A stretch of DNA of 64,000 bases, taken from assembly GCA_020630065.1 (NCBI GenBank), contig JAHDCC010000001.1, positions 38,706 to 102,705 on the forward strand. The letters run 5' to 3'. This document shows, piece after piece, positions 46,173-64,000 of this stretch. The notes below the pieces were generated by a model. The model made no database searches. It worked only from the letters and a program-made list of their open reading frames with translations, and was not told the origin of the DNA. Source of the stretch: Acidimicrobiales bacterium. Its GTDB lineage: Bacteria > Actinomycetota > Acidimicrobiia > Acidimicrobiales > SZUA-35. Numbering within the stretch: position 1 is the first letter of the stretch; every line of letters starts with the position of its first letter. A program made the position numbers and the translations under genes.

Positions 46173-46241
46173 CTTGGTGTTGTGTGTCCGGCGTTCCTAA
46201 AGAGTAGAATCGCTCCCACTCGAGCGAACACGGGGGTTCTG

Positions 46242-46991
46242 ATGTCAGGCCATTCCAAATGGGCAACAATCAAACACAAAAAGGGTGCAGCTGACGCTAA
46301 ACGAGGGAAGCTTTTTGCCAAGCTCATCAAACAGGTCGAAGTCGCGGCCCGTCAAGGCGGCGGTGATGTTGAAAGTAACCCGACGCTACGCACAATGTTT
46401 CAGAAGGCCCGAGACAACTCGGTACCGCTCGACACGATCGAGCGTGCGGTCAAACGAGGCACCGGTGAGCTCGAAGGCGTCAACTACGAATCGATCACCT
46501 ACGAAGGCTACGCCCCAGGTGGGGTAGCGCTTTTGATCGACGCGTTGACCGACAATCGCAACCGGACCGGGTCTGAGATGCGTTCGTTGCTGTCAAAGAA
46601 CGGTGGTTCTCTGGCGGAGCCAGGCGCCGTTGCCTGGCAGTTCGAGCGCAAAGGCATCGTCAAAGTCGCTAGAGCCGTTGAAGAAGACGACGTAATGATG
46701 GCCGGGATGGACCACGGAGCCGAAGACATCGAAGACCACGGCGAACACTGGCTCGTTACGTGCGAACCGCCAGACGTCGAGTCGCTGCGTGCAGCGTTAG
46801 AAGCCGAAGGCATAGAAGTTCTCGAGTCGGACTCGACGATGAAACCAAAAAATTCGATAGAAGTAGCCGACAAAGGTACCGTCACCTCTGTTATGAGTCT
46901 GATCGATATTCTCGACGATCAAGACGACGTTCAAGACATCTACTCGAACATCGACATTCCCGAAGACCTGTTGGAGTCACCGGAAGAATAG
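46242..46991 (+). CDS. yebC: YebC/PmpR family protein
   Basis: MSGHSKWATIKHKK, YEGY and TDNRNRT motifs. Confidence 0.96.
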   Translation: MSGHSKWATIKHKKGAADAKRGKLFAKLIKQVEVAARQGGGDVESNPTLRTMFQKARDNSVPLDTIERAVKRGTGELEGVNYESITYEGYAPGGVALLIDALTDNRNRTGSEMRSLLSKNGGSLAEPGAVAWQFERKGIVKVARAVEEDDVMMAGMDHGAEDIEDHGEHWLVTCEPPDVESLRAALEAEGIEVLESDSTMKPKNSIEVADKGTVTSVMSLIDILDDQDDVQDIYSNIDIPEDLLESPEE

Positions 46992-46994
46992 TTG

Positions 46995-47825
46995 TCAGAC
47001 GCCTAGCAGCCTAGAACGTGTCACGCTGCGCACGCCTCGAGTCAAACTGAGCAACGCGATAATCCATGCCAAGAAACCAATGATCCAGGGCAGATAACCG
47101 GCCCCAAACAGTGAGCCGGTTGCCTGGCTGTAGGCGATCCCGATCAGGGGAAGTGACACGAGCCCTGATGCTTGTTGAGCAGCCGCAGTCGAAGAGACCC
47201 GAGCCGAGAGTCGCAAGACGATCGAAAGGCAAAGCACTAAAAACGGTGGCAATACCCAACCAATCATGATCCACCATTGAGCAGTAGGGAAAAACCAGCC
47301 TCCAACATCGGGTCCGACAAGAACGTTCACGAGTAGCGAATACAAGCCAAAACCAACCAACACCGTGCAGTATCCGGGAAGAACACTAGCGCCGAGTTTC
47401 CCTAAATAAATTTCAGTAGTACTGGCTGGGCAATGAGCTAAGAATTCGCCGGTGCCGCGTTCTCGTTCCCCGACGATAGTAGATGCGCCAACCGCAGTCG
47501 AAATAGTCAGTGGAACGACAATAGCCATCGGAGCAAAAAGAAAGACCGCCAGGGCATATCCAGTTTGGCCTTGAGGAGACTGCCCTTCGATTTGTGCTTG
47601 AGCACTATCTGGGAGAACGGCCAAGGTATCCGACACCTGACTTACGACTTCAACGCTGCCGATTTGGGTGACAGTCAACAGAAGAACCCCAGGGATGATT
47701 ACAAAGAAAAATCCTCCCAAAAAGATCATGGGAGCCCAGAAATCTTTCGCCTGAATAAGTTGCTTGAGATCTGTCTTAGCAACTGTCACAACTCGCGACC
47801 ATCTGATCCCGCTTGAACCGGTCAT
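46995..47825 (-). CDS. ABC-2 type exporter permease
   Basis: IVGERERGTGE motif; about 6 TM helices. Confidence 0.85.
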   Translation of the reverse strand: MTGSSGIRWSRVVTVAKTDLKQLIQAKDFWAPMIFLGGFFFVIIPGVLLLTVTQIGSVEVVSQVSDTLAVLPDSAQAQIEGQSPQGQTGYALAVFLFAPMAIVVPLTISTAVGASTIVGERERGTGEFLAHCPASTTEIYLGKLGASVLPGYCTVLVGFGLYSLLVNVLVGPDVGGWFFPTAQWWIMIGWVLPPFLVLCLSIVLRLSARVSSTAAAQQASGLVSLPLIGIAYSQATGSLFGAGYLPWIIGFLAWIIALLSLTRGVRSVTRSRLLGV

Positions 47826-48820
47826 GACGAAACTCCCACTGATTGGCCCGTCGAAACCGGTGGAAGAGCAGACACCTTAGTTGATTGGCCGGCTTCTCGA
47901 CGAATAGCGAAATAGAGGTCTTCGAGGCTCGGCTCGAACGGCCGGACCGATGTCAACGCAGCGCCAGCACCTACAACCAGGGTTACCAAATCAGGTATGA
48001 CCGCAGCGTCGGTAACCTTCACAACAGCAGTGTCATCTGAACGAGCGTATTCTTTAACCCCGACCGTGTTGGCTAACACATCAAGGCGATCACCAACAGT
48101 TGCGGTAAACGTTACTTCTGTGTCAGGCCAGTATCGGTCTGCGATTTGTTGAGGCTTGCCCGAGATCAAACTTGTACCCGCTTCAATCATGATAATTTCG
48201 TCCGCCAGTCCCTCAGCCTCGGACAACAGATGGGTACACATCAGCACAGTCTGGCCACTCTGGGTCATAGTCCGAATGAGTTCGAGTACTGCCTGAGCCG
48301 ATTCTGGATCTAGGCCTGATGTTGGTTCGTCGAGAAGTAGTAACTGTGGGTCATGAAGAATAGATCTGGCGAGCGCAAGCCGGGTTTTCATACCGGTGGA
48401 ATATCCGCCGACTCGTTGATCTAATGCTTCGGAAATCCCAAAACGAGCGGCACAGGTGCGAATTTTCTGCTCAACGCTGGTCATCTTGGCGAGGCCGTAG
48501 AGTTCTGCGGCGTACAGCAGGTTGTCGTAGCCGCTAAGACGGTCATACAGGGAAGGTTTGGCAGACACGACTCCGCATGACGCTCGGATTAGCTCTCCTC
48601 CGGGGCCGCTCGGATCACGTCCTAGTACATTGACCGTGCCGGAGGTCGGTGTCAAAGCACCGGTGATCAGACGTATTGCGGTGGTTTTGCCTGCTCCGTT
48701 GGGTCCCAGCAGCACAGTAATTTCGCCAGGAGGTGCTACAAGATCCAGGTTGTCGATCGCCTGGATTTGCCCGAAACTAAGGCTGACGGTTTGAAGATTG
48801 ATGGTCGCATAATCTGACAC
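47822..48820 (-). CDS. ABC exporter ATP-binding protein
   Basis: GPNGAGKTT, YSTGMK and LDEPTSGLD motifs. Confidence 0.9.
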   Translation of the reverse strand: MSDYATINLQTVSLSFGQIQAIDNLDLVAPPGEITVLLGPNGAGKTTAIRLITGALTPTSGTVNVLGRDPSGPGGELIRASCGVVSAKPSLYDRLSGYDNLLYAAELYGLAKMTSVEQKIRTCAARFGISEALDQRVGGYSTGMKTRLALARSILHDPQLLLLDEPTSGLDPESAQAVLELIRTMTQSGQTVLMCTHLLSEAEGLADEIIMIEAGTSLISGKPQQIADRYWPDTEVTFTATVGDRLDVLANTVGVKEYARSDDTAVVKVTDAAVIPDLVTLVVGAGAALTSVRPFEPSLEDLYFAIRREAGQSTKVSALPPVSTGQSVGVSS

Positions 48821-48903: not shown

Positions 48904-49539
48904 ATGAGCGACGACGACTTTTCCGTAGATGGTATTCCACTTCCGTTGTCGACACCGGACGAAGATGCCTGGGAATCGTACTTGACATCGACGCTAGAGC
49001 AGCTGGGCGCTGATGGCTCAACTGGTCTGACGAACAAGAAGTTGGCCGAGCTTGAACGCGTCGTTGGGGTACAGCTCCCGTTCGAAGTTGGACTTCTTCT
49101 TGTTATGGGCGTGCCCGACACCGACGGCTGGAGACAATGGGGCGAGAACCCGGCTGAGCAGTTTAAAGAGTGGAATACTTGGTTGGTAGAAGGCGTTATG
49201 TTCGACGTTGAACATAACGCCTTCTGGCTATCCTCGTGGGGGCTACGCCCAGATGAACCGGCTCATCGATTCGAGATTGTTGAAGCAGCCGTCGCTGCAG
49301 CTCCGCCACTGCTGCCTATATATGGTCACCGATGTATCCCGCTCACAAAGGCTCGGGGAGAAGAATCCGCCGAATCGAACCCTGTACTTTCGGTCTACCA
49401 AACCGACCTAGTCGTGTATGGCACCGACGTCGCTGATTGGCTCCACAACGAATTCGACGTACCGCTACCGCTTTGGCCAAAGACAGCTGACCGGTGGTTT
49501 CCACTCTGGTCAGAACTGATCGAAACTAACACAAACTGA
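48904..49539 (+). CDS. SMI1/KNR4 (SUKH)-like protein
   Basis: GLT...LAELERVVGVQLP start; APPLLPIYGHR and NPVLSVYQTD..YG motifs. Confidence 0.65.
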   Translation: MSDDDFSVDGIPLPLSTPDEDAWESYLTSTLEQLGADGSTGLTNKKLAELERVVGVQLPFEVGLLLVMGVPDTDGWRQWGENPAEQFKEWNTWLVEGVMFDVEHNAFWLSSWGLRPDEPAHRFEIVEAAVAAAPPLLPIYGHRCIPLTKARGEESAESNPVLSVYQTDLVVYGTDVADWLHNEFDVPLPLWPKTADRWFPLWSELIETNTN

Positions 49540-49645
49540 TCGAATCGTCCTATACCCACATTGCTACAGCCGCCAAACCCGCACTGCGTCAAACCCCACG
49601 AAAATCGATTGGTGAATATGTCGGGCAAAACGGACCAAAACCGGC

Positions 49646-49666
49646 TAGCGTCGTACATGTGTTCGT
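49646..49666 (+). promoter_or_regulatory. leaderless -10 plus LexA (SOS) box-like site at the ruvC start
   Basis: TAGCGT (49646) then TCGTAC-ATGT-GTTCGT (49651-49666), versus consensus TCGAAC-N4-GTTCGA. Confidence 0.6.
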
Positions 49667-50222
49667 ATTAGGAATCGACCCAGGCTTAACTAGATGCGGA
49701 TATGCCGTTTTGCGCCCAGGTAAACGGGGGAAAGCGACTGCGGTAGCTATGGGCGTGCTCCGTACGTCCGCCGAAGACTCCGTCCCAGAGCGTTTAGCCG
49801 AGCTGCAAACCGAAATCCGACTACTCCATGACGAATATCAGCCAGCGGTAGTATCAGTCGAAAAAATCTTCTTCACACACAACGCGTCAACGGCAGTAGG
49901 AGTAGCCCAAGCGTCAGGACTTATTTTGGCTGAATCGGCGGCACGGGGCGCCGACGTGCACCAGTACTCACCAACTGCAGTCAAATCGGTTGTCGCCGGC
50001 GACGGTAAGGCGAACAAAACACAAATCCAAGAAATGGTACAGGTTCTACTCGGCCTGACTGAACTGCCAAAACCGGCAGATGCCGCCGACGCTGCCGCTT
50101 TGGCGTTGTGCCATCTAGCCTACGATCCGTCGCTAGGTCGCAAAACAATATCGGCTGAACCGGGTAATTCTCAAAAACACGGAACCGTTAAAAGCGACGG
50201 TGCCGAGAAGGTCACGACATGA
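49659..50222 (+). CDS. ruvC: Holliday junction resolvase RuvC
   Basis: LGIDPG, VE.IFF, K.QIQ.MV and DAADA motifs. Confidence 0.96.
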   Translation: MFVLGIDPGLTRCGYAVLRPGKRGKATAVAMGVLRTSAEDSVPERLAELQTEIRLLHDEYQPAVVSVEKIFFTHNASTAVGVAQASGLILAESAARGADVHQYSPTAVKSVVAGDGKANKTQIQEMVQVLLGLTELPKPADAADAAALALCHLAYDPSLGRKTISAEPGNSQKHGTVKSDGAEKVTT

Positions 50223-50833
50223 TTGCGTCACTCCGAGGAATGTTGACCGAGCGCCTTGTCGGCGGCGACCGAAGCGTCGGCGTTGATGCCATCGTCGAAG
50301 TCGCCGGAGTCGGATACCAAATAACGATGACCGCAGCGACGTTGTCTCGTCTGCCCTCAGGTGAAGAAGTTGTTGTCTATATCCATCATCACATACGAGA
50401 ATCCGACCAGAAACTGTTTGGGTTTCTTTCGTTAACCGAACGGTCAGCGTTCGAAGGTTTATTGGGCGCTCATGGAGTAGGTCCATCGTTGGCGTTAGCG
50501 GTGTTGAGCACCCACCCGGCAGCTCAACTCGAACGAATCCTGGCTGACGACGATCTGGCCGCGCTGTGCGAGGTGCCAGGAGTGGGCAAAAAAACCGCAC
50601 AACGCCTACTCGTCGAACTGAAATCTACCTTGGTGATCCCAACTGAGGAAACAACCGAAGCGGGTGGTGTGGTCGAAACCGACGGACAGACCGCTATCGG
50701 CGACGTCAGAGAAGCGTTGTCAAGCCTTGGATATTCTTCAGAAGAGATCCGCAAAGCCGTAATTGATCTACCTGCCGATGCCGAAGATTCAGGGCCGCTG
50801 CTCAAACAAGCGCTACGAACATTGGCGGGATAA
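50219..50833 (+). CDS. ruvA: Holliday junction branch migration protein RuvA
   Basis: [27 protein letters not shown] and ALSSLGY motifs. Confidence 0.96.
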
Positions 50834-50837
50834 CTAC

Positions 50838-51920
50838 ATGGCTCGTGACGAATTGATCAACCCGAATAGCAGTCTGGTCAACCCGGAAGTAACCGAAGAC
50901 GACGTAGTCGAAGAGATCAGCGAAGAGTCAGGTCTACGACCGACAAGCCTCGACGATTTTGTAGGTCAGGCGGAACTAAAAGAGCGGCTCGGCATAATTC
51001 TGGAAGCCGCAGCAGAGCGCAAACAAGCCGCCGACCACCTTCTCTTTGGAGGCCCGCCCGGACTGGGCAAGACGACGCTGGCCGGAATTGTCGCCACCGA
51101 ACTCGGCGCTCACCTTCATGTAACGTCCGGCCCCGCTATCGAGCGAGCCGGTGACCTAGCGTCGATCCTAACCAAAGTCGAACGAGGCGACGTTCTGTTC
51201 ATCGACGAAATCCATCGGCTCCCACGGGTAGTCGAAGAAGTTCTTTATCCTGCGATGGAAGACCTCCAACTCGACGTCATGTTAGGTAAAGGTCCAGCGG
51301 CACGATCTATTCGGTTCGATATCGAACCATTCACACTGGTCGGTGCGACGACGCGTACCGGCCTTATCACCGGCCCGCTGCGTGACCGGTTTGGGTTCGC
51401 GTTTCGGCTCGAATACTACGATGCCGCCGATCTTGAACTAATAACATTGAGGGCAGCCGAGGTTTTAGGGGTCGAAATCGACGCTGGGGGTGCGTCGGAA
51501 ATAGCGTGCCGCAGTCGAGGCACGCCTCGAATAACAAACCGACTACTCCGACGTGTACGCGACTACGCCCAAGTTCGAGGCACCGGCAAAATCGATCAAG
51601 AAACCGCGTCTGACGGACTTGCCTTGTTCGGAATCGATGAACGAGGTCTTGATAAGGTCGACCGGACCCTGCTCGACAACCTTTGTAACCGATTCGGCGG
51701 AGGTCCGGTAGGTTTATCGACGTTGGCGATCAGTCTCGGTGAGCCGACCGAAACCGTAGAAGACGTAATCGAACCATTCCTCATTCAACAAGGCCTGCTG
51801 GTACGCACACCACGGGGTAGAGTAGCGACTCCTGCATCGTGGAAACATCTAGGCATGGCACCCCCAAAGGACCAGGAAGTTCTTGACCTCGATTTCGAAC
51901 CTCCTGCCATTATTGATTAG
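50838..51920 (+). CDS. ruvB: Holliday junction branch migration helicase RuvB
   Basis: [34 protein letters not shown] and RTPRGR motifs; ATG 50838. Confidence 0.97.
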
Positions 51921-51958
51921 AGAACCAGATCATTCAAAAAAGGGCGACGGATACACCA

Positions 51959-53686
51959 ATGGGTGAGGAAACCGAAATAGTAGGTCGAATACTAGGAACC
52001 GAAGACGCGACACCGCTGCTGTTTTGGGTAGCAATCGCTCCAGGCCAACATCTTCAACTAGACGACGTGATCGCGGTCGACCGGATTATGCCAACCGGCG
52101 AGACGATCACCGCCTATGGCGTAGTAGGCCAGGTTCGTGCCCGCCATGAAGGCGCCAAATTTCAGAGCGACGTTTTCATGATCGCCGATGGGCGGCTTCC
52201 AGCCGAAGTTTCAGAAGCCGCCGAGATTCAGCTAACAAGAGTCGTCCCAGAAACGTTCGTCCCGCCGTTACCCGGAGAACCGGTGCGTAAAGCGACCGAC
52301 TCAGAGCGGGATGTCGCCCTCGATTTTGCTGACGTTGAACGTCGACTACCTGCTGGGTTGAGTAGGGAAAACGAGCCGATCTATCTTGATCTTGATTTTG
52401 TCGACGGAACCAAAGGTGCCCACGTCAACATCAGCGGCATCTCGGGTGTTGCCACAAAAACTAGCTACGCGACCTTCTTGTTGTATTCGATCTTCAACAG
52501 CGGCGTCCTCGGCGCGTCGGCCACCAACACCAAAGGGCTTATCTTCAACGTCAAAGGCGAAGACCTTCTCTTTCTCGACCATGACAACACCTCGCTCACC
52601 CCAGACCAGCGGGCCCGCTACGGGTTCTTGGACCTCGAACCGCACCCGTTCACCAGCGTCGGCATCATGGCGCCGCCACGGCCCGGCGACCCGAACGCAA
52701 CGCCCCAAACCGGGGCCCGCCAAGTAGGAGTCGAACCGTACTTCTGGACCATCGCAGAGTTTTGCGAACAAGGCTTACTGCCGTTTCTCTTCGCCGACGC
52801 CGAAGACGAGCGCCAGCAATACACCATCGTCGTGCGTTCAGTTACCGAACAACTACGACGGTGTGCACGCACTGGTGACACCTCTGACGGGGCCGTTTCG
52901 ATCAACGGGGTACGAGTCAGAACCTTCGAGAAACTAGTTGAAGTCATCGAAGACATTTTGATCCCAGAAGACCCAGACGACTATGTTGATGCGAAATGGT
53001 CTGGACGGGCAGTCGGCGGCGGAACCATCAACGCCTTTGTGCGAAGACTGTCAGGCTCGACCAAATACATGTCGCAGCTCATACGCGCTGACGTCAATAA
53101 CGCAACCCGCTACCAGCTTGATTTAGACAAAAACCAGTTGACGGTAGTCGATATTCATCAGCTTCATGACCGAGCGAAACGGTTTGTTGTCGGTGTTGTT
53201 CTGCAGCAGGCGTTCGCAGCGAAAGAGGCCTCGGGTGTCGCAGACCCACTCCAGTTCATCGTGCTTGACGAATTAAACAAATACGCACCACGGGACTCAT
53301 CCAGCCCAATCAAAGAAATACTCTTGGACGTGGCGGAACGAGGCCGCAGCCTGGGAATCATCCTCATAGGCGCTCAGCAAACGGCAAGTGAGGTCGAACG
53401 ACGGATCGTCGCAAACAGCGCCGTACGGGTAGTAGGCCGACTCGATAGCGCGGAGGCGGGCCGAGAACAATACGGCTTTCTGCCCGGCCTTCAACGCCAA
53501 CGGGCGACTATTCTGAAACCCGGTTCGATGTATCTGGCACAGCCACGGCTTCCGGTTCCCTTGCTGGTCGAATTTCCATTCCCAGCGTGGGCAACAAGGT
53601 CTTCGGAAGCCAATCTGGCCGGGACAATCGATCACAAATCACTTGGCACCAAAGATATGTCCGATCCGTTTGACGAGGTCCAATGA
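51959..53686 (+). CDS. herA: HerA-family (FtsK/HerA) DNA translocase ATPase
   Basis: N-terminal HAS-barrel-like region; HVNISGISGVATKTS (variant Walker A), FNVKGED, IVLDELNKY and ERGRSLG..LIGAQQ motifs. Confidence 0.88.
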   Translation: MGEETEIVGRILGTEDATPLLFWVAIAPGQHLQLDDVIAVDRIMPTGETITAYGVVGQVRARHEGAKFQSDVFMIADGRLPAEVSEAAEIQLTRVVPETFVPPLPGEPVRKATDSERDVALDFADVERRLPAGLSRENEPIYLDLDFVDGTKGAHVNISGISGVATKTSYATFLLYSIFNSGVLGASATNTKGLIFNVKGEDLLFLDHDNTSLTPDQRARYGFLDLEPHPFTSVGIMAPPRPGDPNATPQTGARQVGVEPYFWTIAEFCEQGLLPFLFADAEDERQQYTIVVRSVTEQLRRCARTGDTSDGAVSINGVRVRTFEKLVEVIEDILIPEDPDDYVDAKWSGRAVGGGTINAFVRRLSGSTKYMSQLIRADVNNATRYQLDLDKNQLTVVDIHQLHDRAKRFVVGVVLQQAFAAKEASGVADPLQFIVLDELNKYAPRDSSSPIKEILLDVAERGRSLGIILIGAQQTASEVERRIVANSAVRVVGRLDSAEAGREQYGFLPGLQRQRATILKPGSMYLAQPRLPVPLLVEFPFPAWATRSSEANLAGTIDHKSLGTKDMSDPFDEVQ

Positions 53687-54873
53687 AGCTGCTTCACACC
53701 AGCGATTGGCACGTTGGAAAAACCATTCGAGGTCGATCACGTGCGGAGGAACACAAAACCGTTCTGGCCGAAATGGCCGACATCGCTGACAACGAAAACG
53801 TTGACGTAATCATTGTTGCCGGCGACCTGTTTGAAACCGCAACGCCGACCGCCGAATCAGAACAGATCGTCTACAAAGCTTTGCTCGATTTTGCCAACAC
53901 CGGCGCTCAAGTTGTTGTGATCGCCGGTAATCACGACAATGCTCGACGTCTAGAAGCGGTAACCCCAGTCTTTCACGCCGTCGGGTCGATCCACGTCGTC
54001 ACGAAGGCAACCCGGCCGTCAGAAGGTGGAACCATAACAATTGAGACTTCCACCGGAGAAACAGCTAAGGTCGCTATGCTTCCGTTTGTCTCCAAGCGAG
54101 GCATCGTCAAGGCAGCCGAACTGTGGGACAACGAAGCGTTCGAAAACTCCCAAAAATACACTGACCGGGTCACAAAAATGATGGCGCTGCTAGCCAACGA
54201 GTTCGACCCGAAGACCATTAATATCTTGGTCGCTCATACTTTTGTTCACGGACAGGCACTAGGTGGTGGTGAACGCCAAGCACATTTCGTTGAAGAGTAC
54301 GCAGTCACCTCACAATCAATCCCAACTACCGCCAACTATGTGGCGCTCGGTCACGTGCACAAAGCGCAGAAAGTGTCAGCCGGGTCGGTCACCCACTATT
54401 GCGGATCGCCTCTTCAACTCGACTTCGGAGACGGTGAAACCGACAAACAAGTAAACCTAGTCGAGCTACGGGTAGGCGCACCAGGAGCAGTCACACCTCG
54501 AATACTTACATCGGGTAGACGACTCCAAACCCTCCGTGGTTCATTGGCCGAGCTGCAGGCCCAAGCTCAGTCTATTTCAGACGACACCTGGCTCAGAGTT
54601 TTTATAGACCAACCAAACCATGCCGGTCTAGCTGACCAGGTCCGACAACTCTTCGGCGACCGCCTAGTCGAAGTCAAAGTAACGAGTGTAAACCCGACAG
54701 TCTCTACAAAACAGCCTCGTCGGATTGGTCGATCGGCGCGGGAACTATTCGCAGAATACCTTTCGGAACGTAATATCGACGACGACCGTCTACTCGACGC
54801 GTTCAATGACCTGGTAGAGGCTGAACTTGACGCAACACAACACGTAACCCCAGGTGGGGACGTCTCAACATGA
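53683..54873 (+). CDS. sbcD: SbcD/Mre11 nuclease
   Basis: HTSDWH, AGDLF, GNHD, VAH, LGHVH and GSP motifs; ATGA overlap with herA. Confidence 0.95.
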   Translation: MKLLHTSDWHVGKTIRGRSRAEEHKTVLAEMADIADNENVDVIIVAGDLFETATPTAESEQIVYKALLDFANTGAQVVVIAGNHDNARRLEAVTPVFHAVGSIHVVTKATRPSEGGTITIETSTGETAKVAMLPFVSKRGIVKAAELWDNEAFENSQKYTDRVTKMMALLANEFDPKTINILVAHTFVHGQALGGGERQAHFVEEYAVTSQSIPTTANYVALGHVHKAQKVSAGSVTHYCGSPLQLDFGDGETDKQVNLVELRVGAPGAVTPRILTSGRRLQTLRGSLAELQAQAQSISDDTWLRVFIDQPNHAGLADQVRQLFGDRLVEVKVTSVNPTVSTKQPRRIGRSARELFAEYLSERNIDDDRLLDAFNDLVEAELDATQHVTPGGDVST

Positions 54874-57761
54874 GACCGGTGCGACTGGCCATGGAAGGAT
54901 TCGGAGGGTTTCGTTCCGCCACAACCGTCGACTTCGACGATCTTGAACTTGTCGCGCTCGTAGGGAAAACCGGCTCTGGTAAGTCGACGATTATCGACGC
55001 TATTACGTTTGCTCTCTACGGGATGGTTTCTCGCTACGACGACGGTCGAAAAGTTCACCCCGTCATCAACTCGCTCGCGACGGAAGCCAAAGTCCAGTTT
55101 GTATTCGAATCGGGTGGAGTCGAATACAACGCCACACGCGTCATTCGTCGGACCAAAACCGGAGCCTCGACCAAAGAAGCCCGCTTTCAAAACCAGCAAA
55201 CCGTGCTGGCCGAAGGAGCGAAAGAAGTGACGGCTGCGGCCGAAGGAGTTTTAGGTCTCGACTTCGCCCAATTCACCAAAGTCGTCGTGTTACCTCAAGG
55301 AAGATTTTCTGCGTTTCTTCGAGACTCGGCCAAAGACAGACGGGTGATGTTGGCCGAAACGCTAGGTGTCAGCCGATACGACGCTATTGGACGGACCGCT
55401 CGAGAAATCGCCAAAAATGCTTCGATCAAAGCCGACGAAAAACGAGCCACTCTCCAACGGTTTGAATCACAGACAGGCGACGTCAAAGCGCTCGAACAAG
55501 ACTTGGATGCACTTCGGAAGATCTCAGTCTTGGTTGAGCAGCGAACAGCGCAAGTTCGAACACTAACCAACGCCAGCGCCGAGTTGAAAACCTCACAGGC
55601 CCAGACAGAAGTCGCTATCAAGAAATTGCAGGCGATAGAGATACCGGCAACGGTTTCAGATCTAGACGACAAGATTTCGGCCGCTCGACAAGCATTAGAA
55701 CGATCATCCCGTCTGGTTGAACAGCACGACAACGAACGAGAACGAGCTATTGCCGCCTTCGAAGCCGGACCAGACGTTGAACGAAGCCAACAACTCCTAG
55801 ATGACTTCGACGCACAAGCCGGCTTTGCGAACCAACTCGGCGACGTCGAAGTCGAACTAAGTCAAGCAGCCAAAAAAGTTGACGAAGCGGAAAAATCTCT
55901 CCTCGGGTATAGCGAGAAAATACAAGTAGTAGAACAGGAACTAGCTGACGCCGAGACACAAGAATCTGAATGTCGAAATGATTTGGCCGATGGCCCTAAT
56001 CTCGATGGAATCAACCTCACCCGTTCCAAAAGACATGAGCTAACCCAACTACAGTCCAAAGTTGTTGAGCAACAAACAACTATCGAAGCTACACAAACCC
56101 AACTACTCGAGGCCCAAAACGCGTTCGAGCTAGAACAAGCAGCCGTCGAGCTAGCGGAACAAAACCATCAACGAGTTGTTGACTCTGAGCAGGGGGCTGC
56201 GCTTCGTCACAGCCTCGTTATAGGCGAGCCATGCCCGGTTTGTGAGACAAACGTAGAACGGCTACCGACGAGTGATCTATCCGGCAATGTCGCTGCTACC
56301 GACGAACAGCGGATCCAGGCCCAACGGCAAGCGGTCAAACGAAAGTCCGAAGTTGACAAGCTCCAACAACTCGGCGTCGAACAGCTTGCTACGAAGCAGG
56401 CCACAGACCATCGAATCGAGGAACTGAACGCCGAGTTAGCTGAAGCCCCGACTGAAACTGACATCAAAAACCTCGAACAACAGGTCGCTCAGTTAGAACA
56501 AGCTATGCGTCAAGCCTCAAAACGTCGAGCAGACCTAACTCAGACGGTCCGTGAACTGCGTTCAGAAGAGTCGTACAAACACGCTGAGCGGCAATCAAAA
56601 CGTGCGGCGGTGACTCTCCAAAAACTTGAGAAGAAACAAGCTGCACTTTCCGGCCAGTTAAGCGTCGTCGAATCTCGACTAGCTACCGCACCCAACCGTG
56701 ACGAACTCCAGGTCGCCATCGCTGAAGCCTTAGAGTTAAAACAAAACGTCGAGCAGAGCCGCCAACGTTATAACGACACGACCGAGACACATACGAGACA
56801 GATCGAATCGCTAGACCTGTTACTCAACGAGGCGACCTCACGGCGAAGTGAATTAACGGCTGCTCGAGACAGCGTCAGCGAACTTAGGCCACCTTCTCCT
56901 ACCAACGATTCGCTACTTAACGACTGGCGGATTCTAGCCTCCTGGGCTACGGAGCAGCTGGCTATTCAGAAGAGTCATGTTCAAAGCCTGGAAGGCGAAA
57001 TCGCTGCCAATGAAACCGCAGTACAGCAGCAGATTGGCGCCATCGGCGACATCATCGACGATTCAGAAACCGCCACAGCCGGTATAGATCTTAGAGCTGA
57101 TATTTCGAGCCTTGACCCTCAAGAAGCTGCCACACAAGTCGAACGGACCGTGGCAGCCGCTATGGCCTCTATCAGCGGACAGCACAAACTGCTCTCAGCG
57201 CAGAGCCACCAGATAAGCCAGATCCAAGATGAACTTGCTGCAGTTGAACAAATACAACAAGTTCACGAGCTGCTAGGTGAACAGCTAAAAGCCAGCAATT
57301 TCCAAGATTGGATCTTGAGCGAAATAGTGACGGCGCTGGCGGATCGAGCTAGTGAACGTCTCTTTGAACTATCGGCTGGACAGTTCTCATTGGTGGCGAG
57401 CGAACTGAATTTCGAAGTCATTGACCATACCAACGGCGATAGCCGCCGTGACGCCAGAACTCTGTCTGGAGGCGAAACCTTTCTAGCTTCTTTGGCGCTC
57501 GCGCTTGCACTCGCTGATGGTATTGTCGAGATGTCCGCCAATATCACGAACCCGCTTGAGTCGCTGTTTCTGGATGAGGGCTTTGGCACACTAGATGACG
57601 ACTATCTTGACATCGTGGCAAGTGCGGTAGAGGAACTCGGCGCCCATGGCCGGACTGTGGTTGTGATCACCCACATCGATGAGTTAGCCGACCGTCTTCC
57701 AACCCGGTTCGAGCTAACAAAGATACAGGGCGACTCTTCGATCAAACGGGTCGATGTATGA
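54870..57761 (+). CDS. sbcC: SbcC/Rad50 SMC-like ATPase
   Basis: GKTGSGKST, LPQGRF, coiled coils, CPVC zinc hook, LSGGE, LFLDEGFG and ITH motifs. Confidence 0.95.
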   Translation: MRPVRLAMEGFGGFRSATTVDFDDLELVALVGKTGSGKSTIIDAITFALYGMVSRYDDGRKVHPVINSLATEAKVQFVFESGGVEYNATRVIRRTKTGASTKEARFQNQQTVLAEGAKEVTAAAEGVLGLDFAQFTKVVVLPQGRFSAFLRDSAKDRRVMLAETLGVSRYDAIGRTAREIAKNASIKADEKRATLQRFESQTGDVKALEQDLDALRKISVLVEQRTAQVRTLTNASAELKTSQAQTEVAIKKLQAIEIPATVSDLDDKISAARQALERSSRLVEQHDNERERAIAAFEAGPDVERSQQLLDDFDAQAGFANQLGDVEVELSQAAKKVDEAEKSLLGYSEKIQVVEQELADAETQESECRNDLADGPNLDGINLTRSKRHELTQLQSKVVEQQTTIEATQTQLLEAQNAFELEQAAVELAEQNHQRVVDSEQGAALRHSLVIGEPCPVCETNVERLPTSDLSGNVAATDEQRIQAQRQAVKRKSEVDKLQQLGVEQLATKQATDHRIEELNAELAEAPTETDIKNLEQQVAQLEQAMRQASKRRADLTQTVRELRSEESYKHAERQSKRAAVTLQKLEKKQAALSGQLSVVESRLATAPNRDELQVAIAEALELKQNVEQSRQRYNDTTETHTRQIESLDLLLNEATSRRSELTAARDSVSELRPPSPTNDSLLNDWRILASWATEQLAIQKSHVQSLEGEIAANETAVQQQIGAIGDIIDDSETATAGIDLRADISSLDPQEAATQVERTVAAAMASISGQHKLLSAQSHQISQIQDELAAVEQIQQVHELLGEQLKASNFQDWILSEIVTALADRASERLFELSAGQFSLVASELNFEVIDHTNGDSRRDARTLSGGETFLASLALALALADGIVEMSANITNPLESLFLDEGFGTLDDDYLDIVASAVEELGAHGRTVVVITHIDELADRLPTRFELTKIQGDSSIKRVDV

Positions 57762-58699
57762 GGTTCGCCGTCGAGGCCTGGTCGCCTGAGTACGGAGTGT
57801 CCGGCGACGAGTCCCAGCTCGATGAACACGCGGAGCCGGTCGACCTTGACGTAGAGGTAGCGGCGAAAAGCTGGGAACCGATTCGGGCCTCCACGCTAGA
57901 CACCATAGAACGAGTTGTGTTTGTGGATGGTGTTCGCAGAATCGACGCCCGAATCTGGGTTGACGACGGCGGGCAATCTCGACAAGGCGTCTGTGCGAGC
58001 GTCGCCGCCGGCGCAGTCGTCTGCACACCACAGAAAGCCACAGTCACAGAAGTTGCCGTATTTAGAGGGTTCTTCACCCAACCTCTCGAAAAGGCGGAGA
58101 ACATCCAGACCAAACACGGCGACTATGTCTATGTGCCGTGTGCGTCGGACCGTCCAGAAGATATCTATCTGGGCATTCACGACCAGATGACGAGTTTGGA
58201 AACTTCACTCCAGGTTGAATCCTCCGAAGCTGACCCGAAAGGGGAGAGTGATGGTGGTGACCTGATCGTTTTTGATGGGCCGCTTCGGGGTAGGAACAGT
58301 CCGAACAGCGTGGGATACGTAAAAACTCAGCATGTGCAGTATCTCCCGGATTCACATCAGCCAATTCTGGGTCGATTGTCGGCCGGGGAACGAACACCGC
58401 TGTTCCACATAGGTGGACGGTTCGGTCGGTACAGCTGGTATTTGAGGCTTCCGAGTGAGCAAACTCATCCATTAGCCGGGATCGTTCGCTGTGAAGTGGC
58501 TGCCGTCGGCCCACCGAGTGAGGCTATTGCTCTTGCGGTGCGGACGTCTGGTGTTTTGCCCTGGTATGGGTCTGAACCTCACAAAGATTCACGGGCACCC
58601 CAGAATCTGTATCCGATAGCGGGACTCGAGAATCAGCTACGCCACCGACTTGGTGATCCACTCGTTCTCGAACGAGCTTTGCGAAACGCTGCTAGTTGA
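57758..58699 (+). CDS. nurA: NurA-family 5'-3' nuclease
   Basis: VFVDGVRR, FDGPL, GYVKT, GERTP, SWYLRL and PQNLYPI..LE..LR motifs; coupled to sbcC. Confidence 0.85.
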   Translation: MRFAVEAWSPEYGVSGDESQLDEHAEPVDLDVEVAAKSWEPIRASTLDTIERVVFVDGVRRIDARIWVDDGGQSRQGVCASVAAGAVVCTPQKATVTEVAVFRGFFTQPLEKAENIQTKHGDYVYVPCASDRPEDIYLGIHDQMTSLETSLQVESSEADPKGESDGGDLIVFDGPLRGRNSPNSVGYVKTQHVQYLPDSHQPILGRLSAGERTPLFHIGGRFGRYSWYLRLPSEQTHPLAGIVRCEVAAVGPPSEAIALAVRTSGVLPWYGSEPHKDSRAPQNLYPIAGLENQLRHRLGDPLVLERALRNAAS

Positions 58700-58723
58700 C
58701 GGCCGACTACATATTGTCGGTCG
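58700..58723 (+). terminator. hairpin after nurA (probable operon end)
   Basis: CGGCCGAC-N8-GTCGGTCG; weak U-tract. Confidence 0.5.
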
Positions 58724-58775
58724 CTAGTTCTTAGTTGGCGTTCTGCTTATTCTGGTCTGTCGGTAGAGTCGCCCA

Positions 58776-59447
58776 ATGCCTACTGAATACTCTGAGTCGA
58801 TGGGGCCGACCGAGCTTGTTGCATCGGATGGTCGAACAATATCGGTCGAAGCTAATGGTACTGAACCAGCTGAAATTCGGGTTAAGGATGGCATAACAGA
58901 TGTTGTGCTTCCGTACCCTGCGGCAGGTTATGGAGGTCACCAACTCGCTCTTTCAAAAAATGAACGGCACCTTGCCGTACACTTTTTCTCGGGGCAAGGC
59001 GACAATTGGATCGAGTTGTTCGATTTTCAGCCTCTCCGCCACGTTAAACGTGTCGAAGTTGAACAGGGTGTTTGTTCGTGGCCCACATTCTCAGATGACG
59101 GACGACTTCTGGCCATAGCCTGCACAGTCAACGCCTCACTAGAGGCGGAATCGTATGGAACCAACGATGGGGACGTCGTCGACAACGCGGTGACGATTCC
59201 TTGGACCACACTCCAAATTTTTGACATCGAATTGGATAGTGCCTTCACAAGCGAAGTCGAGGTCCTGATAGCCAAAGGAGAGCCAATAGAACGGGAAGAA
59301 GACTTCTACGTTGGCAGCTACTTGGGAGTTTCTGCTGACGGAGTCGAAGTTCATATGGCCTGGGGACCGTCGGTGACGGTTCCGTTTCCGCAGGCTGACG
59401 TAGTTGTTGACGGTCCTGTCCCAGCAGGCGGCGTCGAACTAGGTTGA
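58776..59447 (+). CDS. hypothetical beta-rich protein (WD40/PD40-like repeats)
   Basis: LALSKNERHLAV and PTFSDDGRLLAI repeats; TAGAGT -10 lies 6 nt before the ATG. Confidence 0.65.
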   Translation: MPTEYSESMGPTELVASDGRTISVEANGTEPAEIRVKDGITDVVLPYPAAGYGGHQLALSKNERHLAVHFFSGQGDNWIELFDFQPLRHVKRVEVEQGVCSWPTFSDDGRLLAIACTVNASLEAESYGTNDGDVVDNAVTIPWTTLQIFDIELDSAFTSEVEVLIAKGEPIEREEDFYVGSYLGVSADGVEVHMAWGPSVTVPFPQADVVVDGPVPAGGVELG

Positions 59448-59642
59448 GATCCGGATGAGGGAAATAGCTGGTACTTCTAGTAGCAGATGTGTACGAGAAG
59501 TTGGTTTGGTACCAGTCACTGGGTCGAATCCAAGGTGTGGATCAGAGTGGCGTTCCGCTCCGGCCGCTTCAGCCATAGCGGCGGACTCGGGTTGCTCACG
59601 ACCTAACAGAACTTGAGTTGGCACTGATTGGTGATTGATCAT
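59439..59642 (-). CDS. possible small hypothetical protein
   Basis: 67 aa; ATGA overlap with the upstream gene; no recognisable motif. Confidence 0.3.
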   Translation of the reverse strand: MINHQSVPTQVLLGREQPESAAMAEAAGAERHSDPHLGFDPVTGTKPTSRTHLLLEVPAISLIRIST

Positions 59643-60067
59643 AGGTCTTCGGGTTGGATCTGTCTTGCTTCGTGTTGAATGACTACTCTTATTCCCGAGT
59701 GCTGGGATGGCAGAGAAATGGGTGGACTTGTCCCTGGTATTCTGACGTCGGTGGTACCACCTCCAGTGCGGATCACGATCTCAATCCGTTGATTGTTGTT
59801 TGTGTTCAACTCATCGAGAACTGTCTGGAGTACAGAACGTAGCTCGGTATTTGCTGGCAGTGCTTGCCAGGTTTCTTGCACCGATCGATGGATGTCGAGC
59901 TGCTCAGCTTGTTCTCGCTCGGCGTGTTTCTGGTATAGCCGATCTCGGTTGCGTTGAATCTTGTCTTGTTGCTCCTCTTTGTTGGGAGTCGTGGTGTTAC
60001 CGAGCATCACAGCGACCACACCTACGACGACGACAAAGGTGAGGACGAGAAACAGTTGTGCTGTCAT
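59639..60067 (-). CDS. hypothetical single-TM coiled-coil protein
   Basis: GGAG RBS 6 nt before ATG 60067; N-terminal TM helix followed by a charged coil. Confidence 0.65.
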   Translation of the reverse strand: MTAQLFLVLTFVVVVGVVAVMLGNTTTPNKEEQQDKIQRNRDRLYQKHAEREQAEQLDIHRSVQETWQALPANTELRSVLQTVLDELNTNNNQRIEIVIRTGGGTTDVRIPGTSPPISLPSQHSGIRVVIQHEARQIQPEDL

Positions 60068-60381
60068 TTTGTTCTCCAATCTTGGGTTTGGAGAGCCGAA
60101 AGTAGGTTATTTTTGACGGCTCGTGGTTCATGCAGGACATGGGACCCGCTGTGGCGCTTTCGCGGCGTTGAGAGACACAGCCTCGCGAGTCGGAAAATGT
60201 TGGTAGGACGACTTTTCGGATTTAGACAGTGGAACTCGCTGCATGGATCAGTTTGCAAGTTCCTTGTGTTTGTTTTCACAATGTTAGTAAAGTTTCAAAT
60301 GTATTACAAGAGTGTGGGGCTGAGTTTTGATGTATGTGGGTGTCGTTGGACGTAGCTTCTACCATTTGGTAAGGTCTTGTA

Positions 60382-61272
60382 ATGGAAGATCCGTTGGTTG
60401 AGCTGGGCCGCCAACTCGAAGCGGCCCGGAAGAGTAAAGGCTGGTCAGCCCGGATGGCAGCTGAACGCGCCCGGATAAGCCCGGTTTATCTCCGCACACT
60501 CGAAAACGGCAAGAACCCTAATACCGGGAAGCCATCTCAACCCACACCAGAAATCTTGGTTCGAGTTGCTACGGCCCTCAATCTGGACCCAGAAAGTCTT
60601 CTTACCCTTGCTGGTCATGATGCTAAAGGCGTGCTCAACGATGAATCGCTGCCTGCTGTTAATGATGTACGGGCGGCGCTTGATCGAATGTCCTCAATGG
60701 CTAACAGAGTCGGCGATCTTCATCCGTTTATACGTGATCGAGCGGTGTCGGAGGTCGAACGATTTGCCGCCGACTTTCGACGACTCGCTAATGGCAGTTT
60801 CAGATGTCTACCTGAAGAAGAACCGCAATTAACACGTACAGCCCTCAAAGGTTCAACTAAGAGCATCAAGGCGGTCAGTTTCGGCGATGAGGAATGGTGG
60901 TTAGGCGATCGAGGCTCTATCTATCTTGATTACCATGATCGCTTACCTGCGACGGTAAAAGTGCAGCGGATCTTTCTAGTTCAGGAAGAGTGGTGGGAAC
61001 GGCTGAAACCGGTTTTTCGTCGGCATGAGGACGCTGGAGTCGAATGGAGAGTGTTGGCTCCACGTGAGGTAGCCCCGCAGTATCAGAAGGACTTCGTGGT
61101 CTACGACGATCGACTGCTTCGCTCAGTTCCTCTAGGGCCAGTTTCTTCTGCAGAGTTCAAGCCGGCTATTTTTACTCAGGATCGGCTTGAAATCGAGCAA
61201 GCGGTCGAAGAATTCGAGTATCTACAAACCGTTGTTGACTCGTACTACATCGATCGGGACAGATTGTTGTGA
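60382..61272 (+). CDS. XRE-family HTH regulator with C-terminal DUF6879-like domain
   Basis: ARKSKGWS...ISPVYLRTLENG HTH; C-terminal VQRIFLV..AGVEWRV..DFVVYDD. Confidence 0.8.
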   Translation: MEDPLVELGRQLEAARKSKGWSARMAAERARISPVYLRTLENGKNPNTGKPSQPTPEILVRVATALNLDPESLLTLAGHDAKGVLNDESLPAVNDVRAALDRMSSMANRVGDLHPFIRDRAVSEVERFAADFRRLANGSFRCLPEEEPQLTRTALKGSTKSIKAVSFGDEEWWLGDRGSIYLDYHDRLPATVKVQRIFLVQEEWWERLKPVFRRHEDAGVEWRVLAPREVAPQYQKDFVVYDDRLLRSVPLGPVSSAEFKPAIFTQDRLEIEQAVEEFEYLQTVVDSYYIDRDRLL

Positions 61273-61299
61273 ACTAGCTAGGACTAGGCCCATGCTAGG

Positions 61300-61320
61300 C
61301 TCGACGCCTAAGTCGTCGAG
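61300..61320. terminator. hairpin between convergent genes
   Basis: CTCGACG-N7-CGTCGAG. Confidence 0.4.
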
Positions 61321-61374
61321 GGTTATATTCCGTTGCAATCGATGTGAGGCTGTGTCGGGCTGCCACAGAAAGAT

Positions 61375-62433
61375 TCAAGCTTTCTTTCTCCCTGAAGCAA
61401 GTCCAAGAGCCAGAAGAATCAGCAGAACGACAGAGCTGATCAGAAAAGGGAACAAAAGTCCGGGGTTCAGTAGAACTGCTACACCGCTGTCGACTATCGC
61501 CGAATTATCGCTGTACTGAAGAAAGCCAAAGAAGACTGAGCCGAACACGGTAAAACAGGTGAGTATAAACAGAACTTTTGCAACATAGGCATTACTTCGT
61601 TCTCGTTTCCTGGCCAAAAGAAAACTGATGTGATTCGCCTCCTCATTTACTACGTCACGATGCCATTGATGGCGAACTCTCAGTCTGTAGACATCTATGA
61701 GGTACTCGCATAAGTTCCGAACGTCGCCTATGTAGGACTGGCTTCTACCTAAGAAAAGTCGATGCAATTTATGGAGTCGTACCTTTTCGCTAGACACTCG
61801 GCTGAACGAATCGCTAGTGACATCGTCACTATTCGCATCGATATGGCGGCTGACCTGGTTCTGTTCAATCGCAATTAAATAGAGCCCGCAGGTCTCGTAG
61901 AACGACTTTAGACAGGAAATCAAGATGGGGTCACAGGAGTGCTCATCCACACTCTTCATCTCAGGGGTAATAGTTTGTGCGTTGCCAAGAACCTCTTCGA
62001 GAAAGGGAAGGCTTACGATGCTCGCAAAACGGCTGACGTCAAAGTCATAATCTGTTTGGGTGCATTCGGCAATTTTTTCGAATAGTCGATTCTCGGTATC
62101 TTGGATATCTAATTTTTCATCGATTGCGATTCTGTACACGAAGTGGTGTGAATAGATCTGCTCAAAGTCCGTGTCAAATAGACGGACAGCGAGAATGGTG
62201 AGGTCAGTCACATGAAGCTTGATGGGTCCCAAATCAAACTCATACTCCAGATCACTGTGATGGATAGATGGGTGGAAATTCTTTTCGAAACTCTCCCGAA
62301 ACGAATTCGTCATTTTCTGGAGCGGCGCTGTCTGGTTGGGGGCGAGCTCACCATCCAATACATCAAGCTCGCTGCCGAAATCGGCAACAAAAGTGAGATA
62401 GAGAAATTTGGCCGTTTTATCAGAAGGGTTCAT
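61375..62433 (-). CDS. hypothetical CorA-like membrane protein (soluble domain, long helices, two C-terminal TM)
   Basis: About 350 aa, AT-rich; ATG 62433 or TTG 62460; two terminal hydrophobic helices and a basic tail; no GMN motif. Confidence 0.65.
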   Translation of the reverse strand: MNPSDKTAKFLYLTFVADFGSELDVLDGELAPNQTAPLQKMTNSFRESFEKNFHPSIHHSDLEYEFDLGPIKLHVTDLTILAVRLFDTDFEQIYSHHFVYRIAIDEKLDIQDTENRLFEKIAECTQTDYDFDVSRFASIVSLPFLEEVLGNAQTITPEMKSVDEHSCDPILISCLKSFYETCGLYLIAIEQNQVSRHIDANSDDVTSDSFSRVSSEKVRLHKLHRLFLGRSQSYIGDVRNLCEYLIDVYRLRVRHQWHRDVVNEEANHISFLLARKRERSNAYVAKVLFILTCFTVFGSVFFGFLQYSDNSAIVDSGVAVLLNPGLLFPFLISSVVLLILLALGLASGRKKA

Positions 62434-62652
62434 GATCCAAGTTCGCCTAGTCTTCGGCAATCGATCGACGGCGCCTCGTCGGGCGCAAGAAAGCAGTGAA
62501 AGCTGGCTTGGTTCACTGGCTCATCTTCGACAGTTTAGGCGACTACTTCGATGATTCCGAACATGACGACGTTCTCCAGATTGTTGAGAGACGTCGACAG
62601 TCTGTCCAGTCACAAGCAATCAACTCGGGGTCCAAAGCTATGGTGTTGGGTG

Positions 62653-63698: not shown

Positions 63699-64000
63699 AT
63701 GGGATCATCAAAGCTGAACGTCGAAATCGATGCCGTTGACGGCAAGGCGCGGGCGACGACAATTACGACACAGCGAGGCACGATCCAGACGCCTGTGTTT
63801 ATGCCGGTGGGAACCAGGGGAGCGGTTAAAACCCTTGACACCGCTGATATGGAGAACCTCGACACACAAATTTTGCTCGCCAATACGTATCACATGATGG
63901 AGCGACCAGGTTCTGAGCTAGTGCAGAAACTTGGTGGGCTTCACGGGTTTATGGACTGGCAAGGCCACACTTTGACCGACTCTGGTGGCTACCAGATTTT
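63699..64000 (+). CDS. tgt: tRNA-guanine transglycosylase (5' part, truncated by the window end)
   Basis: Manual translation from ATG 63699 gives ...[14 protein letters not shown]...LANTYH...GGLHGFMDW...LTDSGGYQI. Confidence 0.95.

Follow-up and report, generated by a model that had tools for sequence, protein, structure and literature searches.

What would a bacterium do with a gene block laid out like an archaeal operon for the resection of double-strand breaks, placed directly behind its Holliday-junction genes? This question is raised by a stretch of 64,000 nucleotides (nt) from an Acidimicrobiales bacterium (assembly GCA_020630065.1, contig JAHDCC010000001.1, positions 38,706 to 102,705), hereafter the window. 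The block comprises herA, sbcD, sbcC and nurA at 51959-58699, and the archaeal operon runs in the order herA-mre11-rad50-nurA. A first-pass annotation, made from the letters alone, had read the block as an archaeal-order operon and as part of a resection-to-resolution superoperon with ruvCAB. The analysis described here indicates that it is probably a bacterial-type DNA-end-processing cassette that would feed recombinational repair, inserted between ruvB and queA. This assignment is favored because the catalytic sites are intact, the constraint is strong, the linkage to SbcCD is near-obligate and a damage-type promoter was identified in relatives. The four genes are as follows, lengths being given in amino acids (aa).

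51959-53686, + strand: herA, predicted bacterial-type HerA hexameric DNA translocase, 575 aa (PDB 7f6d_B at 2.4e-148).
53683-54873, + strand: sbcD (Mre11 homologue), bacterial type, 396 aa (TIGR00619 at 188.7 bits, cut-off 77.65; E. coli SbcD at 7.9e-32).
54870-57761, + strand: sbcC (Rad50 homologue) with a CPVC zinc hook, 963 aa (PF13476 at 85.2 bits, PF13558 at 38.7 bits; E. coli SbcC at 2e-26).
57758-58699, + strand: nurA, predicted bacterial-type NurA nuclease, 313 aa (PDB 7f6d_H at 4.3e-27, and a fold match).

HerA was matched to its Deinococcus radiodurans counterpart (PDB 7F6D) from residue 3 to 553 out of 575, against residues 10 to 603 of the solved protein. The Walker A residues K167/T168 lie in a deviant GVATKTS loop (GISGVATKTS) that is identical in D. 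radiodurans, the catalytic acid is in a KGED motif (E201/D202) and Walker B is formed by D437/E438. These three pairs align to K175/T176, E219/D220 and D487/E488 of D. radiodurans HerA and are invariant in 24 homologues, over which the mean column identity is 71%, speaking for a strong constraint on the protein. The first and third pairs are described as essential in the D. radiodurans study (PMC9960219). No family of Pfam or NCBIfam was identified for HerA at an expectation value (E) <= 0.001, nor anything relevant at E <= 10; judging from the sequence, the curated models of both collections do not cover the bacterial HerA clade and the match to the solved protein decides the identity. No archaeal HerA structure was matched at E <= 1, and the defence-associated HerA 8xau gave E 0.034 over 70 residues.

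The fold of the last gene product, on which the first-pass annotation had made its assignment depend, was found in the predicted structure. The AlphaFold2 model, built on 30 homologues, reached a predicted local distance difference test (pLDDT) of 87.4 and a predicted template-modelling score (pTM) of 0.85. Its best Foldseek match was D. radiodurans NurA (7f6d_G, E 3.5e-20, template-modelling score (TM) 0.70), followed by Thermotoga TM1739 (1zup, 3.9e-14) and by Sulfolobus NurA (2ygk, 1e-6, TM 0.43), the latter matched by fold only; the TdpAB chain 8wfd_G was a distant match (E 2.4e-4, TM 0.40). The modelled protein is in these terms a NurA with the RNase H-like NurA fold. Its motifs are W8, D57-G58, D173-G174-P175, K189 and R279-APQNL, where W8 is the N-terminal tryptophan beside the strand-splitting pin. 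D57-G58, D173-G174, K189, R279 and W8 align to D53, motif II, K201, R309 and W8 of D. radiodurans NurA and are invariant in the 30 homologues; D53, K201, R309 and W8 are reported as essential in PMC9960219. The Pfam model PF09376 (cut-off 21) scored 20.2 bits for the protein and 21.2 bits in the genome search, with its neighbours in frame, and this single match is the only NurA found in the genome.

The SbcD phosphoesterase motifs are D8/H10, D48, N83/H84, H185 and H224/H226, all invariant in 22 homologues. This protein is closer to E. coli SbcD (7.9e-32) than to Pyrococcus Mre11 (4.6e-13), the archaeal Mre11 models reaching 61.9 bits against the 188.7 bits of TIGR00619, and its gene is the single sbcD match and the only SbcD found in the genome. 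SbcC presents a GKTGSGKST Walker A, an LPQG Q-loop, the CPVC zinc hook, an LSGGE signature, an LFLDEGFGTLD Walker B/D-loop and an ITH H-loop. It scored 231 bits with TIGR00618, below the cut-off of 478.5, and is accordingly a divergent, shorter SbcC. Both proteins are closer to E. coli SbcCD than to the Mre11/Rad50 of Thermotoga or archaea. The four proteins are thus of bacterial type because their best matches are bacterial (D. radiodurans for HerA and NurA, E. coli for SbcD and SbcC), and the block is archaeal in gene order only. The earlier identification of the catalytic motifs in all four proteins stands.

Two length classes of cassette SbcC were observed among loci L004 to L083. Most have about 790-850 aa, and a longer class of about 946-1000 aa is formed by the window, L004, L005, L008, L009, L013, L014, L016, L017, L035, L041, L046 and L053. 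The sequences imply coiled coils of differing length in the two classes.

The closest known system is the NurA-HerA pair of D. radiodurans (PDB 7F6D, 7WRW and 7WRX; PMC9960219), which belongs to the same families and bacterial clade, with an identical Walker A loop and the essential residues conserved. In D. radiodurans the pair is treated as a two-gene nurA/herA operon whereas in the window herA and nurA bracket sbcD-sbcC; PMC4663267 leaves open the link of the D. radiodurans pair to sbcCD. Oceanithermus profundus comes nearest in arrangement, as nurA-hepA(herA) is described there with sbcD-sbcC downstream, a bacterial linkage of HerA/NurA and SbcD/SbcC that its authors read as archaeal-like (Blesa et al. 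2017, PMC5448004). By that description the nurA-hepA duet comes first and sbcD-sbcC follows hepA, whereas in the window, from a different phylum, nurA is the last gene. The archaeal operon, from Sulfolobus and Pyrococcus, comprises the same four functions in one co-transcribed cluster, as told in PMC2288612 and PMC5448004, and archaeal and bacterial NurA-HerA are put at less than 20% identity in PMC9960219. The four genes of the window are contiguous, on one strand and in the archaeal order, but their proteins are not of the archaeal type. AddAB and AdnAB are functional analogues, a motor with a nuclease resecting ends, from unrelated families (UvrD-like motors and PD-(D/E)XK nucleases). Sir2-HerA and TdpAB likewise join a HerA-family ATPase to an effector, which in TdpAB has a NurA-like fold, and the window proteins match them only distantly (8xau and 8wfd_G).

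The relatives of the cassette were surveyed with one genome per species, which gave at least 546 stretches with a HerA relative; the locus counts below come from the best 80. These belong mostly to metagenome-assembled genomes (MAGs) of Acidimicrobiia, with others from Nitriliruptoria and one MAG labelled Dehalococcoidia. The sbcD gene lies downstream of herA in 73 of the 80 loci. Where the downstream flank extends to 7 kb or more (57 loci), the complete order herA-sbcD-sbcC-nurA on one strand is kept in 50, so that the four-gene linkage assumed in the first-pass annotation is indeed conserved. A full cassette is found, for instance, at L052, from Salinilacustrithrix flava, a cultured carrier. 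In the window the genes are joined by ATGA start/stop overlaps at 53683 (herA/sbcD), 54870 (sbcD/sbcC) and 57758 (sbcC/nurA); among 62 related loci, with heuristic start calls, sbcD and sbcC overlap in 52, and in 35 of these the overlap measures 4 nt. By these sequences, such tight coupling looks typical of the cassette family.

With a threshold of E <= 1e-40, HerA was identified in 63 of 201 sampled Acidimicrobiia genomes and in 89 of 401 sampled Actinomycetota genomes. The latter count is 77 of 389 without 12 HerA-positive genomes flagged as unpublished (G401, G541, G312, G245, G433, G411, G336, G491, G201, G217, G359 and G560). The distribution is patchy by family, for example 20 of 20 genomes in family f15 and none of 47 in f18. 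In the class sample, SbcD was present in 61 of the 63 HerA-positive genomes and always as a single match: in 58 of them it is found 3' of herA on one contig with it, at a distance of up to 8 kb, and in the other 3 on another contig. SbcD without HerA was identified in 25 genomes of this sample. Since 61 of 63 HerA genomes have SbcD and 25 genomes have SbcD alone, HerA-NurA appears to travel with SbcCD and SbcCD does not seem to need HerA-NurA.

The cassette is therefore an ordinary bacterial version, common in Acidimicrobiia and in other Actinomycetota, and the rarity in bacteria implied by the first-pass annotation does not hold with these counts. PMC9960219 and PMC11442139 place bacterial NurA-HerA in just "a few bacteria" such as Deinococcus-Thermus. 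The Actinomycetota data contradict this statement with a conserved four-gene cassette, carrying the only SbcCD of its hosts, frequently behind a PafBC-type promoter and with an AddAB/AdnAB-like enzyme alongside. These carriers are a natural place to settle the purpose of bacterial HerA-NurA. No report of a conserved actinobacterial herA-sbcD-sbcC-nurA operon was found in the literature searched, although older work may cover the bacterial linkage. The window itself is a modest addition: its cassette is one more copy, notable only because it was recently inserted between ruvB and queA and lost its own promoter motif.

Some relatives differ at the sbcC-nurA junction. It is interrupted in relatives of the Aldehydirespiratoraceae group, where L041 (15769-20272) holds an HSDR_N endonuclease-like gene and an Eco57I-type methylase. 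In L009 (15877-19204) the opposite strand beyond sbcC encodes a HipA kinase toxin and a STAND-like NTPase, with no nurA within the flank, as also in L008 and L013. This junction may be an insertion hotspot.

The regulation of the family was approached through the 22-nt PafBC consensus, given as tGTCgg(N10)tA(N3)T in PMC8635444. The pattern TGTC[AG]-N11-TAnnnT was searched within 200 nt upstream of herA, with heuristic start calls. Of 77 loci, 26 carry it, as do 2 of the 1540 control windows drawn from these loci. Its start lies at -28 to -30 in 14 of the 26, where it would be expected for a leaderless transcript; L047 and L052 are examples of loci with the motif near -30. The stricter 8-mer TGTCRGTG was present in 4 of the 77 loci only. 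The family thereby looks to be DNA-damage-regulated, as far as promoter sequences can tell. The LexA box GAACN4GTTC was identified upstream of herA in none of the 77 relatives; in the window it matches twice, with 1.8 matches expected, and both sites are away from ruvC and herA. The PafBC-type motif is absent before herA, ruvC and the open reading frame (ORF) at 48904 in the window, and the close relative L004 is not among the 26. The sole exact match of the window to the 22-nt pattern is at 63635-63656, in the 3' end of queA and 43 nt before the ATG at 63699. The gene starting there also follows queA in same-order genomes. By chance alone, a window of this size would hold about one such match.

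The genome assembly (3.70 Mb, 95% complete) contains other enzymes for broken ends. An AddAB/AdnAB-class pair of adjacent genes was identified at G000:C51:113486-119763 (locus L096:4487-10763, - strand), encoding proteins of 1104 aa (UvrD helicase and PDDEXK_1) and 997 aa (PDDEXK_1 only). A separate 278-aa PD-(D/E)XK protein adjoins the pair. A Ku gene (PF02735, 160.7 bits) lies at G000:C63:34880-35374, on the same contig and about 3.3 kb before the window start, and by this match the genome also has the end-binding factor of non-homologous end joining. Neither RecB over its cut-off, RecC nor RecJ was identified in the genome search, absence not being proven at 95% completeness. In this the genome differs from D. 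radiodurans, which is said in PMC9960219 to be without RecBCD/AddAB and to rely on RecJ. The cassette as a replacement for RecBCD-type enzymes was rejected, as the AddAB/AdnAB-like pair is present and HerA and RecC occur independently. The alternative break-repair pathway proposed in the first-pass annotation, with the adnAB/recBCD check that it named, has to be restated: the gene content makes the cassette an addition to the usual bacterial machinery and not a substitute.

In the mechanism proposed for this addition, SbcCD (Mre11-Rad50) would, by homology, recognise and clip blocked or hairpinned DNA ends. The HerA hexamer would then drive duplex DNA into the NurA dimer at the expense of ATP, and NurA would split the strands and degrade mainly the 5' strand, leaving a 3'-tailed end for RecA. 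The cassette is standalone in most relatives, often behind a PafBC-type motif, and in the window and one close relative it would be an insertion between ruvB and queA, with probable read-through from ruvCAB. The enzymatic activities, the contact of SbcCD with HerA, the co-transcription with ruvCAB and the role in recombinational repair are all predicted from gene content and homology.

Several results weigh against a role of the cassette in resection for repair. An AddAB/AdnAB-like enzyme is already encoded in the genome, so that resection need not depend on the cassette alone. Across the phylum sample, HerA and RecC show no complementary distribution: the two occur together in 13 genomes, 14 being expected (odds ratio 0.90, kin not being independent). 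The four-gene order is broken in 7 of the 57 loci, 4 of them without a nurA match and 3 without sbcD, sbcC and nurA within 10 kb. The PafBC-type motif is present in just 26 of 77 relatives, with heuristic start-codon calls, and the window copy lacks both this motif and a LexA box, which leaves damage induction here unsupported. In D. radiodurans the nurA-herA double knockout is reported as about 10-fold more resistant to ultraviolet light (UV) and mitomycin C, and the in vitro resection is called weak (PMC9960219). In Thermus the opposite is reported, with UV sensitivity after nurA-herA deletion (Blesa 2017), and the Thermus results conflict among themselves. To these is added the weakness of the predicted contact between HerA and SbcD by the calibration of the prediction tool itself.

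This contact is the step on which a stronger form of the mechanism depends. Archaeal HerA co-precipitates with Mre11-Rad50, as reported in PMC2288612. The predicted HerA and SbcD complex scored 0.50 (runs of 0.55, 0.50 and 0.22) whereas the best of three controls scored 0.00; the runs agree in at least 86% of the contacts and the partner pLDDT is at least 79. The mark that was applied is reached by 58 of 80 solved complexes and by 2 of 110 mismatched pairs. Scores of 0.60 or less, however, comprise 7 of the 80 solved complexes and both passing mismatches, and unless backed by a strong prior such passes are wrong more often than right. The modelled contact is therefore weakly supported: of the HerA-NurA and SbcCD contacts that the first-pass annotation had wanted modelled, a score above the controls was obtained for HerA with SbcD, and its calibration keeps it weak. 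It is possible, though rather doubtful, that the four proteins form a physical resectosome, in which SbcCD would sit on the HerA ring and pass clipped ends straight to HerA-NurA. This would be a third bacterial long-range resection machine beside AddAB/AdnAB and RecBCD, in about one fifth of Actinomycetota, rewired in this lineage from a damage promoter to read-through from ruvCAB. If true, resection and junction resolution would be expressed as one unit in this lineage.

An alternative is that the cassette acts mainly on foreign linear DNA, degrading plasmid or phage molecules from the ends as they enter, as a RecBCD-like barrier or a defence system, and does not chiefly prepare chromosomal breaks for recombination. 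The Deinococcus knockout phenotypes, which misfit a simple repair role, are in line with it. Defence systems of a HerA-like ATPase with an effector are known (e.g. Sir2-HerA, and an ATPase-nuclease system), the NurA fold has its distant match in TdpAB 8wfd_G, and according to a 2026 review bacterial NurA-HerA mainly degrades viral DNA (PMC13748450). The patchy distribution between families f15 and f18, the restriction-modification pair inside sbcC-nurA of L041 and the HipA toxin with the STAND-like NTPase after sbcC of L009 are also in line with it. However, PADLOC returned weak, partial matches in the ATPase region only (the mad8 model at 2.4e-9 and the HerA model at 1.8e-8 for HerA), with SMC-like matches for SbcC and none for NurA. 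The cassette carries the only SbcD of its hosts, it is kept across whole families with HerA strongly conserved, unlike fast-turnover defence genes, and a damage-type promoter motif is enriched upstream in relatives. A destructive role against foreign DNA is accordingly considered unlikely; the anti-phage reading suggested in the first-pass annotation found no support, as no strong PADLOC match (full-length or high-scoring) was obtained.

The co-occurrence of the two pairs can also be read with SbcCD in the lead. SbcCD would remove hairpins, protein-blocked ends or stalled-fork structures, and HerA-NurA would be an accessory degrader limiting or attenuating recombination. The presence of SbcD without HerA in 25 genomes, and of SbcD in 61 of 63 genomes with HerA, suggests that HerA-NurA is the dependent partner, and an attenuation of double-strand-break repair in vivo has been proposed for bacterial NurA-HerA in PMC9960219. 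The same co-occurrence is nevertheless expected if SbcCD loads HerA-NurA for resection, as proposed for archaea in PMC3326311. This division of labor is judged most improbable, and end processing for recombinational repair is kept as the preferred role.

The second part of the question is the position of this end-processing cassette behind ruvCAB. The features flanking the four genes are as follows.

46182-46991, + strand: yebC (TACO1/YebC family; PF01709 at 7e-54, PF20772 at 1.7e-31).
49659-50222, + strand: ruvC, Holliday-junction endonuclease (PF02075 at 3.5e-45; NF000711 at 165.3 bits, cut-off 163).
50219-50833, + strand: ruvA (TIGR00084 at 171 bits, cut-off 85), with an ATGA overlap with ruvC at 50219.
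50838-51920, + strand: ruvB (NF000868 at 480.3 bits, cut-off 282, aligned from residue 50 of the long ORF).
51921-51958, + strand: ruvB-herA spacer of 38 nt, without a terminator-like site and without a PafBC-type or LexA motif.
58700-58723, + strand: hairpin directly 3' of the nurA stop, a possible weak terminator, of 8 pairs (6 of them G-C) and an 8-nt loop.
58776-62460, mixed strands: variable cargo from nurA to queA, with ORFs at 58776-59447 (+), 59639-60079 (-), 60382-61272 (+, XRE-type helix-turn-helix) and 61375-62460 (-).
62551-63684, + strand: queA, the far edge of the insertion (PF02547 at 3.4e-106).

The layout drawn in the first-pass annotation was confirmed in full: seven genes on the + strand, three ATGA overlaps within the cassette, the 38-nt gap from the stop codon of ruvB (51920) to the ATG of herA (51959), and a hairpin after nurA. 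Its seven gene identities were also right, by family models and by matches to solved structures. The longest ORF of ruvB starts from TTG at 50763, and the ATG at 50838, 5 nt past the ruvA stop, is the better fit to the RuvB model. The usual upstream neighbour of ruvC is yebC; here an ABC transporter pair (46995-48820, - strand) and ORF 48904-49539 intervene. The wider order is yebC, the ABC transporter pair, this ORF, ruvCAB, the cassette, 3.85 kb of unrelated genes and queA.

The frequency of this arrangement was estimated from both sides of the junction. Among the 62 loci whose upstream flank reaches 3 kb or more, a ruvB gene upstream of herA was identified in a single one (L004, with a HerA 92% identical). 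For the other side, 29 ruvB loci were taken from further genomes of this order, and 26 of them extend 1.4 kb or more past ruvB. The queA gene lies within 1.5 kb downstream on the same strand in 16 of these 26, in agreement with the statement of the first-pass annotation that ruvB is commonly followed by queA; herA after ruvB was identified in none of the 26. In G167, a genome of the same order with the closest HerA in the samples searched (74% identical), ruvB and queA are adjacent and the cassette is on another contig. In G582, of the same family, the cassette is present with no ruvB within 6 kb upstream of herA. L004 shares the frame of yebC, ruvCAB with the cassette and queA, and none of the nurA-queA cargo of the window was matched there. 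The 38-nt spacer is poorly conserved against L004, the sole relative with the junction.

The simplest reading is that the cassette and a variable cargo were inserted recently at the ruvB-queA junction and that the cargo was then turned over. An insertion is read here because ruvB normally precedes queA in the order while queA in the window lies 3.85 kb past nurA. No informative direct or inverted repeats were identified around the inserted block, no integrase or transposase family was matched among the cargo ORFs, and no GC anomaly was observed over the cassette (0.53-0.56 against about 0.53 in the window).

The same junction could be taken as a selected resection-to-resolution super-operon of ruvCAB and the four genes, whose joint expression would couple the start and the end of recombination. 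All of these genes share one strand, 38 nt separate ruvB from herA, the + strand of this gap holds no terminator-like site, the cassette lacks a promoter motif, and the junction is common to the window and L004. Against this, ruvB precedes herA in that single locus out of 62 and herA follows ruvB in none of the 26 same-order genomes, the cassette of G582 is without ruvB within 6 kb upstream, and the spacer shows no conservation when the window is compared with L004. The ruvB-queA site also holds unrelated variable cargo, which looks like an insertion and not like a selected fusion. The super-operon of the first-pass annotation is on these counts not a conserved unit, and selection for such a coupling is very unlikely.

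With the insertion as the preferred explanation, the window copy appears, from its upstream sequence, to have lost its damage promoter on landing behind ruvB, and the cassette is probably read through from ruvCAB. Four RNA runs picked by species label (organism A) gave 0 reads on 49500-59000, a result that is no measure of expression. The hairpin after nurA is real and its stability is only modestly above chance: its folding energy of -19 kcal/mol (z = -1.85) is equalled or surpassed by 11 of 200 shuffles. The terminator scan of the whole region gave 15 sites against 14.5 expected.

The window has some further features. A 38-nt near-perfect palindrome is found at 49188-49225, inside ORF 48904-49539 and upstream of ruvC, with two 19-nt arms that are 95% complementary and no spacer. 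Just upstream of yebC, genes for hydantoinase/oxoprolinase A and B subunits and an opposite-strand D-glutamate cyclase gene are side by side (42574-46172 and 41708-42466), in what looks like a small cluster for 5-oxoproline/hydantoin metabolism. Finally, DNA near-identical to 51000-55000 (0.55-0.99 of the sampled words) was identified in runs of several studies, some labelled as algae, marine and plant metagenomes and others carrying the label of a single organism. These runs suggest an alga- or marine-associated Acidimicrobiia lineage as the source.

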